Below, piece after piece: positions 27,318 to 27,459 of a stretch of DNA of 30,097 bases. A program made the position numbers and the translations under genes. Numbering within the stretch: position 1 is the first letter of the stretch; each line of letters opens with the position of its first letter. This stretch comes from Candidatus Margulisiibacteriota bacterium (GTDB taxonomy: Bacteria > Omnitrophota > Gorgyraeia > Gygaellales > Profunditerraquicolaceae), in assembly GCA_035506355.1 (NCBI GenBank), contig DATJPP010000018.1:1-30097 (forward strand), given 5' to 3'. The notes under the pieces were generated by a model. That model made no database searches. It was not told the origin of the DNA and worked only from the letters and a program-made list of their open reading frames with translations.

Positions 27318-27350
27318 TTTGCCTCATTTATTAAAGGAGTTGCGGGCAGT

Positions 27351-27434
27351 TTAGCGTCTTGCCCAGGACAAGGTACTGCAGCCCTCTTTGCAGTGCGCAA
27401 CGGGCCGAAGCATATACCTGATGGTCACGTCCAT
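27351..27434 (-). CDS. 27-aa leader ORF, absent from the ORF track
   Basis: MDVTIRYMLRPVAHCKEGCSTLSWARR, with the strong RBS AAGAAAGGAG 6 nt before the ATG. It lies between the promoter and rrf2. Confidence 0.55.
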   Translation of the reverse strand: MDVTIRYMLRPVAHCKEGCSTLSWARR

Positions 27435-27459
27435 TTTGCGCTCCTTTCTTAGCTTGAGT

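Follow-up and report, generated by a model that had tools for sequence, protein, structure and literature searches.

A conserved micro-ORF joined to an RNA pseudoknot at the entry of an rrf2-hcp stress operon in Candidatus Omnitrophota

The question raised by the window, the 30,097-nt stretch of contig DATJPP010000018.1 analysed here, is what the leader between an operon promoter and rrf2 contains and does. A sequence-only reading of the window had proposed that this leader encodes a 27-residue, Cys-containing peptide and can fold into mutually exclusive RNA structures, possibly as a switch. Direct reading found the 27-aa ORF, its Shine-Dalgarno (SD) sequence and all of the listed helices on the minus strand, and a U-tract terminator is indeed absent from the window. 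Comparison with relatives bore out the observation in part and the interpretation in part: the features stand, and so does the idea of a peptide combined with a structured leader, since the reading frame proved to be a real and conserved gene whose RNA also contains conserved structure, while the proposed switch does not.

The operon begins just downstream of a P-type ATPase gene that ends at 27508 (minus strand). Its promoter has a -35 hexamer TTGACA at 27484..27489 and a -10 element at 27467..27462, the latter within an extended -10 TGgTATCAT (both minus strand). A palindrome, AATGATAC-N7-GTATCATT (27461..27483, minus strand), overlaps the spacer and the extended -10. Some 35 of 40 relatives match the motif TTGACAAATGATAC-N7-GTATC at 90-100% identity, and TTGACA together with the palindrome is 90-100% identical between genera of the order (loci L022-L050). 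The palindrome is conserved before rrf2 with or without the small ORF and occurs once in this 75%-complete genome. It is presumed to be the operator of the Rrf2 repressor encoded downstream.

The rrf2 gene (26910..27317, minus strand) encodes 135 aa matching Pfam Rrf2 (PF02082, 2.3e-27) and the NCBIfam rrf2 superfamily; a wHTH domain and three C-terminal cysteines (C-x7-C-x5-C) place the product in the Rrf2 family. A weak SD, GAGG, lies at 27325..27322 (minus strand), and the start is found in the window 33 nt past the small-ORF stop and 26 nt past the pseudoknot described below. The genes that follow encode a Fer4 protein, a 76-aa Cys-rich zinc-ribbon protein (25854-26084, minus strand, between the Fer4 gene and hcp), Hcp, superoxide reductase and POR. 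This arrangement shows the small ORF to be the first cistron behind the presumed Rrf2-operator promoter of an O2/NO-defence operon. The position of the zinc-ribbon protein is conserved in many relatives, and it is a separate protein, not the N-terminus of Hcp. The listed 439-aa hcp ORF begins at a GTG; the start that is conserved lies inside it, at MFCYQCEQTAGG. A distant second paralogue of Rrf2, 25% identical to the first, is encoded at 14709-15071 of the window (minus strand).

In about half of the relatives, which are without the cassette of small ORF and pseudoknot, rrf2 is leaderless or has a short leader at the same promoter, and the cassette is therefore to be regarded as an add-on leader. 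The rrf2 ATG of relatives without the small ORF stands 34-36 nt after the start of TTGACA, which implies a leaderless rrf2 mRNA.

The small ORF (27351..27434, minus strand) comprises 27 codons plus TAA, running from an ATG at 27434 to the stop at 27353..27351, and encodes MDVTIRYMLRPVAHCKEGCSTLSWARR; its SD, AAAGGAG, occupies 27441..27447 (minus strand). Positions are also given as rel coordinates, which count from the M8 codon (rel x = window 27413 - x). More than 100 relatives from Candidatus Omnitrophota were compared overall; the statistics on elements refer to 96 distinct homologous ones. Relatives from other genera and families within the same order share the 221-nt leader at 72-81% nucleotide identity, higher than the identity of their Rrf2 proteins (45-63%). 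An SD of GGAGG type, or one more weakly purine-rich, lies 6-9 nt 5' of the ATG in all 19 of the first 19 homologues, and the SD region forms an information peak at rel -35..-27 across the 96 distinct elements. In the same elements conservation has a three-base periodicity that runs from the ATG to Cys19, with mean information of 1.82, 1.98 and 0.80 bits at codon positions 1, 2 and 3, respectively (codons 8-19).

Codons 1-19 (27378..27434, minus strand; peptide MDVTIRYMLRPVAHCKEGC, core YMLRPVAHCKEGC) are under selection at the amino-acid level. The consensus of the homologues is M-D-I-T-[IV]-[KR]-Y-M-L-R-P-V-A-H-C-K-E-G-C-S, in which the ATG is kept throughout and the 13 residues [YW]-M-L-R-P-V-A-H-C-K-E-G-C make up the conserved core. 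Both cysteines, Gly18 and Arg10 are invariant across lineages. The cysteines of the H-C-x3-C motif singled out in the sequence-only reading thus hold everywhere, whereas several lineages have Arg in place of its histidine, His14. The peptide persists through synonymous changes in hundreds of genomes, far beyond chance, and on this comparative evidence the small ORF is a genuine, presumably translated micro-gene and not a chance reading frame.

The stop codon, by contrast with the core, is mobile: TAA at rel 60 in 71 sequences, TGA at rel 54 in 16, TAG at rel 42 in two, and a stop beyond the pseudoknot in seven. The C-terminal tails of natural variants, 0 to ~40 extra residues long, are unrelated to one another. 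Since the spacing between Cys19 and the first pseudoknot stem is invariant and the stop moves, the residues after Cys19 are irrelevant as protein. As in arrest peptides, an amino-acid-conserved motif ends at a fixed codon, here Cys19, with free sequence after it. AlphaFold2, run on a natural 35-aa variant with 88 sequences, gave a mean pLDDT of 53.7, no secondary structure and no confident fold.

A profile HMM of the small ORF matched 143 of 234 genomes of the order, in 65 of 121 genera, mostly with one copy per genome, and the small ORF is present in 139 of 401 genomes sampled across the phylum. Among GTDB species genomes 409 places were confirmed by tblastn, and the best 80 of these 409 all belong to Candidatus Omnitrophota. 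The peptide has no match in Pfam (E up to 10) or NCBIfam (E up to 1). An HMM search of 1.84 billion protein representatives returned unnamed proteins of 19-138 aa, whose cluster members are only nameless or called 'hypothetical protein', and one 3103-aa repeat protein, which aligned only over 8-residue stretches and was judged spurious. The ESM Atlas held no usable match to two natural peptide variants. Rfam 15 searched by cmscan over 26800-27900 (E up to 10) placed no family within 27333-27447, including preQ1-I/II/III, SAM-II/V, fluoride and guanidine-III. The literature search found neither the peptide strings nor a leader ORF or pseudoknot before rrf2 or hcp. The element is thus widespread and undescribed, an unnamed peptide family together with an RNA motif absent from Rfam.

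The signals of peptide and RNA can be told apart along the leader: codons 1-19 are conserved at the amino-acid level, and the segment that follows at the nucleotide level, with covariation. This segment, UGUCCUGGGCAAGACGCUAAACUGCCC (27344..27370, minus strand), is predicted from covariation to form an H-type pseudoknot of 27 nt that begins 7 nt past the Cys19 codon, a distance that is fixed. Stem S1, UGUC/GACG, pairs 27370-27367 with 27358-27355 (rel 43-46 with 55-58), and stem S2, GGGCA/UGCCC, pairs 27364-27360 with 27348-27344 (rel 49-53 with 65-69). The loops are L1 CU (rel 47-48), L2 A (rel 54) and L3 CUAAAC (rel 59-64), which holds the TAA stop. The consensus over rel 43-69 is UGUCCYGGGYANGACRYUAAACURCCC. 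Codon periodicity is lost here (1.39, 1.52 and 1.62 bits at codon positions 1, 2 and 3), and past rel 70 conservation falls to about 0.2 bits per position.

In alignment A3 the two crossing helices are paired in 93.4% of cells, with double changes in six of the nine pairs; slid controls gave 29-51%. None of 500 shuffles reached the observed values on any of five measures, none of 2000 shuffles reached the observed values either, and RNAalifold recovered S1 unaided. Pairs were counted in 106 insertion-free sequences, filtered for at least seven of the nine pairs; the filter dropped ten sequences, nearly all bearers of insertions. Four pairs lack any mismatch: 44-57 (99 GC, 6 CG, 1 GU), 45-56 (101 UA, 5 CG), 50-68 (102 GC, 3 AU, 1 GU) and 51-67 (98 GC, 4 AU, 4 GU). 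The weak ones are the outer pair 43-58, mismatched in 23 of the 106, and 52-66, mismatched in 14, of which 13 are C.A. Only in the sense RNA can the G.U pairs form. Divergent lineages rebuild S1 as GGCUC/GAGCC, GCUC/GAGC or UGCC/GGCG, and S2 with A49-U69, A50-U68 or A51-U67.

Insertions of 40-75 nt, which are themselves hairpins, are confined to L1 or L3 and leave both stems intact. Such structured insertions were seen at L163, L165/L115, L276, L061, L010, L155, L015, L144, L147 and L156. Some of them recur in similar form in different genomes (CCCGCC…GGCGGGATCCCGCC…GCGGG), which points to an expansion module that these genomes share or to a small inserted element.

A scan of the order with a degenerate pseudoknot pattern gave 121 matches in 117 of 234 genomes and none with the reversed control. 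When the hit lists were compared by eye, all matches coincided with small-ORF sites except one decayed copy. At this locus (L278; G182:C30:41700-42300, bases about 255-300) the peptide-coding part is deleted, and the SD AAAGGAG almost abuts an intact pseudoknot. The pseudoknot sequence is unique in this 75%-complete genome. At the level of sequence, the comparison shows a coding micro-ORF and an RNA pseudoknot held at a fixed spacing, with variable stops.

The other helices of the earlier proposal fared unevenly against the 96 elements. The 'competing' hairpin GGGCA (27364..27360) with TGCCC (27348..27344) was rightly picked out, in that it is kept and covaries, but it is stem S2 of a pseudoknot that had not been foreseen. 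The possible hairpin ACUGCA/UGCAGU (P0; 27375..27394, minus strand, rel 19-38, codons 14-20, 8-nt loop) is also kept, with 93.6% of cells paired, although this figure is confounded by the His-Cys...Cys-Ser codons it overlaps. A hint of it comes from codon choice: of 78 Ser codons at position 20, 72 are AGU, and 92 of the 96 elements have U38 whatever the residue. The helix GTTGCG (27401..27396) with CGCAAC (27344..27339), said to enclose the hairpins, is paired in 39% of cells, and the pairing of the SD AAAGGAG with CTCCTTT (27339..27333) in 55.8%; both are at chance level and peculiar to the window. The outer pairs of the CTTGTC/GGCAAG hairpin fail in 41-56 of the 96 sequences. Taken together, the proposed helices fall inside the shuffle distribution on every measure.

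Of the 96 elements, 82 lie directly before rrf2, most often 44-60 nt downstream of the conserved promoter/operator, and the distance from pseudoknot end to rrf2 start ranges over 8-60 nt across elements. The remainder closely precede same-strand genes for Hcp, Fer4, flavodiiron, PNPOx-like, DJ-1, YHS (copper), FNR-like, LTXXQ or GH5 cellulase proteins, and further copies adjoin a CsoR-like gene, cysK or rubrerythrin genes. At least 90 of the 96 elements lie immediately upstream of a gene. Where rrf2 starts within 27 nt of the small-ORF stop, eight of nine loci are without any SD-like motif; most of those farther away have one. The close starts without an SD suggest translational coupling of the two reading frames.

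Stand-alone copies also exist, either followed by a terminator or convergent. In one Omnitrophota family (L179, L188, L197 and L198) a glycine-zipper lipoprotein gene is followed by the ORF with its pseudoknot and then by a strong intrinsic terminator, after which come ferritin-like and rubrerythrin genes; this arrangement could produce a discrete small transcript. Copy L184 and its neighbour are convergent, and no gene on the strand of the copy lies downstream of it. No conserved alternative pairing was seen in the stand-alone lineage between pseudoknot and downstream terminators, and an antiterminator was rejected. Two other ideas were set aside: a copper link via an upstream CopA is weak, CopA being upstream in only 6 of the 96 loci, and a RiPP precursor was rejected because no modification enzymes are conserved nearby.

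A metagenome scan revealed a distant subfamily, M-x-I-N-I-W-T-K-K-[YF]-M-L-R-P-V-[AT]-H-C-R-S-G-C, in other bacteria, on contigs of 35-67% GC (L199-L277). Its ORF (…WTKKYMLRPVAHCRSGC, stop) ends at the second Cys or mostly within four codons of it, and is followed by no pseudoknot; P0 is not kept either. Within ~100 nt there follows a gene for a membrane protein of ~100 aa (CGYCxGHW, borderline DUF1360) or for eCIS-core (DUF4157) proteins. Some loci carry two copies in tandem, and several ORFs are followed by purine-rich short tandem repeats, e.g. of GGCAGTT or GGGAGCA units. The genome studied here has no gene for the DUF1360-like partner. The existence of this subfamily implies that the peptide is the older unit and the pseudoknot a lineage-specific addition.

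The explanation favoured here, held tentatively and at a likelihood a little below even, is that the cassette may be a translation-coupled cis-regulatory element, namely a leader whose ribosome pauses and so gates rrf2 translation. Frameshift-stimulating pseudoknots are known to halt a ribosome whose A site is occupied by the codon 7 nt upstream of the first stem. In the small ORF, a compact structure at such a distance (6-8 nt from the A-site codon) would brake elongation with the P site at Gly18 and the A site at Cys19, and the entire conserved peptide would then lie inside the exit tunnel. Peptide and pseudoknot would jointly set the dwell time of the ribosome in response to some cue, for which thiol/Cys-tRNA, metal or NO chemistry are candidates. 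On passing, the ribosome would melt the pseudoknot and terminate; initiation at rrf2 could follow, either by handover or because the path is free, and the outcome would be a tuning of the translation of repressor and operon.

This reading is favoured because the predicted position of the brake coincides with Cys19, the last conserved residue, and because the stop of the other subfamily lies close to that point. The leader position, the diversity of downstream genes, the close rrf2 starts without an SD and the irrelevance of the sequence past Cys19 speak for it as well, as do the coding selection, the wide occurrence and the covariation of the pseudoknot, and the lack of an AlphaFold2 fold is in line with it. 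Several findings weigh against a pausing leader. The related subfamily in other bacteria is wholly without the pseudoknot, the sequence 3' of the pseudoknot is unconserved and variable in length, with no defined expression platform visible, and pairs 43-58 and 52-66 show mismatches. The terminator-followed and convergent copies would be better explained by a trans-acting product, and the two invariant cysteines suggest the chemistry of a free peptide.

These last points lead to the strongest rival, a possible but rather unlikely one, in which the functional product would be a free micro-protein of 20-27 aa that uses Cys-x3-Cys to bind or buffer a metal (Cu, Fe, Zn), or interacts with the stress proteins as a thiol/redox or NO-reactive partner; on this view the pseudoknot would serve the mRNA only, in stability, termination efficiency or processing. 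The invariance of both cysteines, Gly18 and Arg10 across lineages, the single copy in most genomes, and the stand-alone copies with their own terminator or in convergent position all fit such a product, as do neighbourhoods dominated by genes of redox, metal or thiol function (Hcp, SOR, rubrerythrin, flavodiiron, CsoR-like with YHS-domain Cu genes, CysK, DJ-1) and the pairing of the pseudoknot-less subfamily with the CGYCxGHW membrane protein. However, a working micro-protein is harder to reconcile with the unrelated tails of natural variants, the replacement of His14 by Arg, the lack of a confident AlphaFold2 fold, and partners so diverse that they include a GH5 cellulase and eCIS-core proteins. 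It also leaves unexplained the fixed 7-nt distance between Cys19 and the pseudoknot, and the single pseudoknot without an ORF in the scan of the order.

That decayed locus, which retains SD and pseudoknot, is in turn an argument for a third reading, in which the pseudoknot, perhaps with P0, would be a small riboswitch-like aptamer or a protein-binding site that the ORF merely overlaps. Conserved loop nucleotides (C47, UAAAC), such as occur in triplex-stabilised small pseudoknot aptamers like preQ1-I, and the restriction of variable insertions to loops are consistent with it. It is nonetheless very unlikely: the decayed copy is the only pseudoknot without an ORF in that scan, Rfam offers no family even at E up to 10, an expression platform is not conserved, and a mechanical brake stabilised by tertiary contacts would account for the conserved loops just as well.

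The switch of the sequence-only reading, in which pairing of the SD with CTCCTTT and of GTTGCG with CGCAAC around alternative hairpins would provide translational attenuation by Cys-tRNA, is almost certainly wrong, for although all of its helices exist in the window and the SD/anti-SD pairing occurs in the MFE fold, these two pairings do no better than shuffles, the window RNA alone does not fold exceptionally (MFE -48.5 kcal/mol, z = -1.35, with 16 of 200 shuffles folding as well), the Cys codons number only two, and conservation is down to about 0.2 bits per position after rel 70. Classical attenuation at Cys codons is also unlikely, since these are only two, a terminator/antiterminator pair is missing and conservation extends over the whole 13-residue core. 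An attenuator of the trpL/hisL type was rejected on the same grounds: the ORF has no run of regulatory codons, its two Cys codons being three codons apart, and neither a U-tract in the window nor conserved alternative helices are found.

The pausing leader can be carried further, to a new class of translational sensor in which a tunnel-held nascent Cys-x3-Cys peptide and a pseudoknot brake would read a thiol, metal or NO signal and gate an Fe-S repressor together with the O2/NO-defence operon, while in other phyla the cousins without a pseudoknot, located ahead of DUF1360-like and eCIS-core genes, would use an early stop codon for braking. This extended version is unlikely as it stands. Were the pausing-leader reading correct, the cassette would provide the first case, outside frameshifting, of a bacterial leader in which a conserved nascent peptide and a conserved mRNA pseudoknot cooperate, and the uncultured Omnitrophota would gain one of the few regulatory RNA/peptide elements defined for that phylum. 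Read conservatively, the data add a small-protein family, unannotated and missed by gene callers in hundreds of species, and a covariation-supported RNA motif absent from Rfam, both at the entry of a major oxidative/nitrosative stress operon.

Compared with known systems, the locus resembles the autoregulated Rrf2 operons of NsrR/IscR-like regulators in its three cluster-binding cysteines, the palindromic operator over the promoter, and hcp and ferredoxin-like targets. It differs from those reported in having a conserved leader ORF and pseudoknot between operator and rrf2; none such was found reported. RNase III-cleaved hairpins or terminators give rise to non-stop mRNAs of the 55-70-aa rescue factors in arfA and brfA. 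The cassette is like these in carrying conserved RNA structure across the 3' end of a small ORF and in that it matters little where the annotated stop falls, but it has no similarity to them, a much shorter peptide and a stress-operon context. With preQ1-I and other small pseudoknot riboswitches it shares a length of ~27-34 nt, the H-type topology and an A-rich 3' loop; unlike preQ1-I, it has no Rfam match, lies within a coding region, is tied to one peptide and is found in no queuosine or other metabolic context.

The pseudoknot itself also resembles the compact H-type frameshift-stimulating pseudoknots of BWYV-type luteoviruses and of the bacterial IS3 and dnaX cassettes, with two stems of 4-5 bp, a 2-nt loop 1 with an invariant C, a 1-nt junction, an A-rich loop 3, a position 6-8 nt after the A-site codon and a zero-frame stop nearby. 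Frameshift cassettes, however, have a slippery X XXY YYZ heptamer 5-9 nt upstream, where the present cassette reads GAG GGC UGC AGU. Programmed frameshifting or readthrough was rejected: there is no slippery site, UAR occurs in the -1 frame in only 53 of the 96 elements, nothing is conserved downstream, and inspection of the distances from element to rrf2 revealed no consistent phase. With neither a slippery heptamer nor a conserved alternative frame, the cassette is therefore not a recoding site.

Ribosome arrest peptides, ligand-sensing in the leader ORFs of TnaC, SpeFL and Erm and force-sensing in SecM/MifM/CliM, are the remaining point of comparison. To our knowledge, none of these has an obligatory downstream pseudoknot, which the present cassette possesses; it also differs in having no sequence similarity to them, no RAPP- or Pro-type arrest motif and some stand-alone copies, and any arrest by it is putative. 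It shares with them a short upstream ORF with a strong SD directly before a putative target gene, an amino-acid conservation that stops at a defined codon, later residues that are free to vary and a peptide short enough to fit wholly in the exit tunnel.
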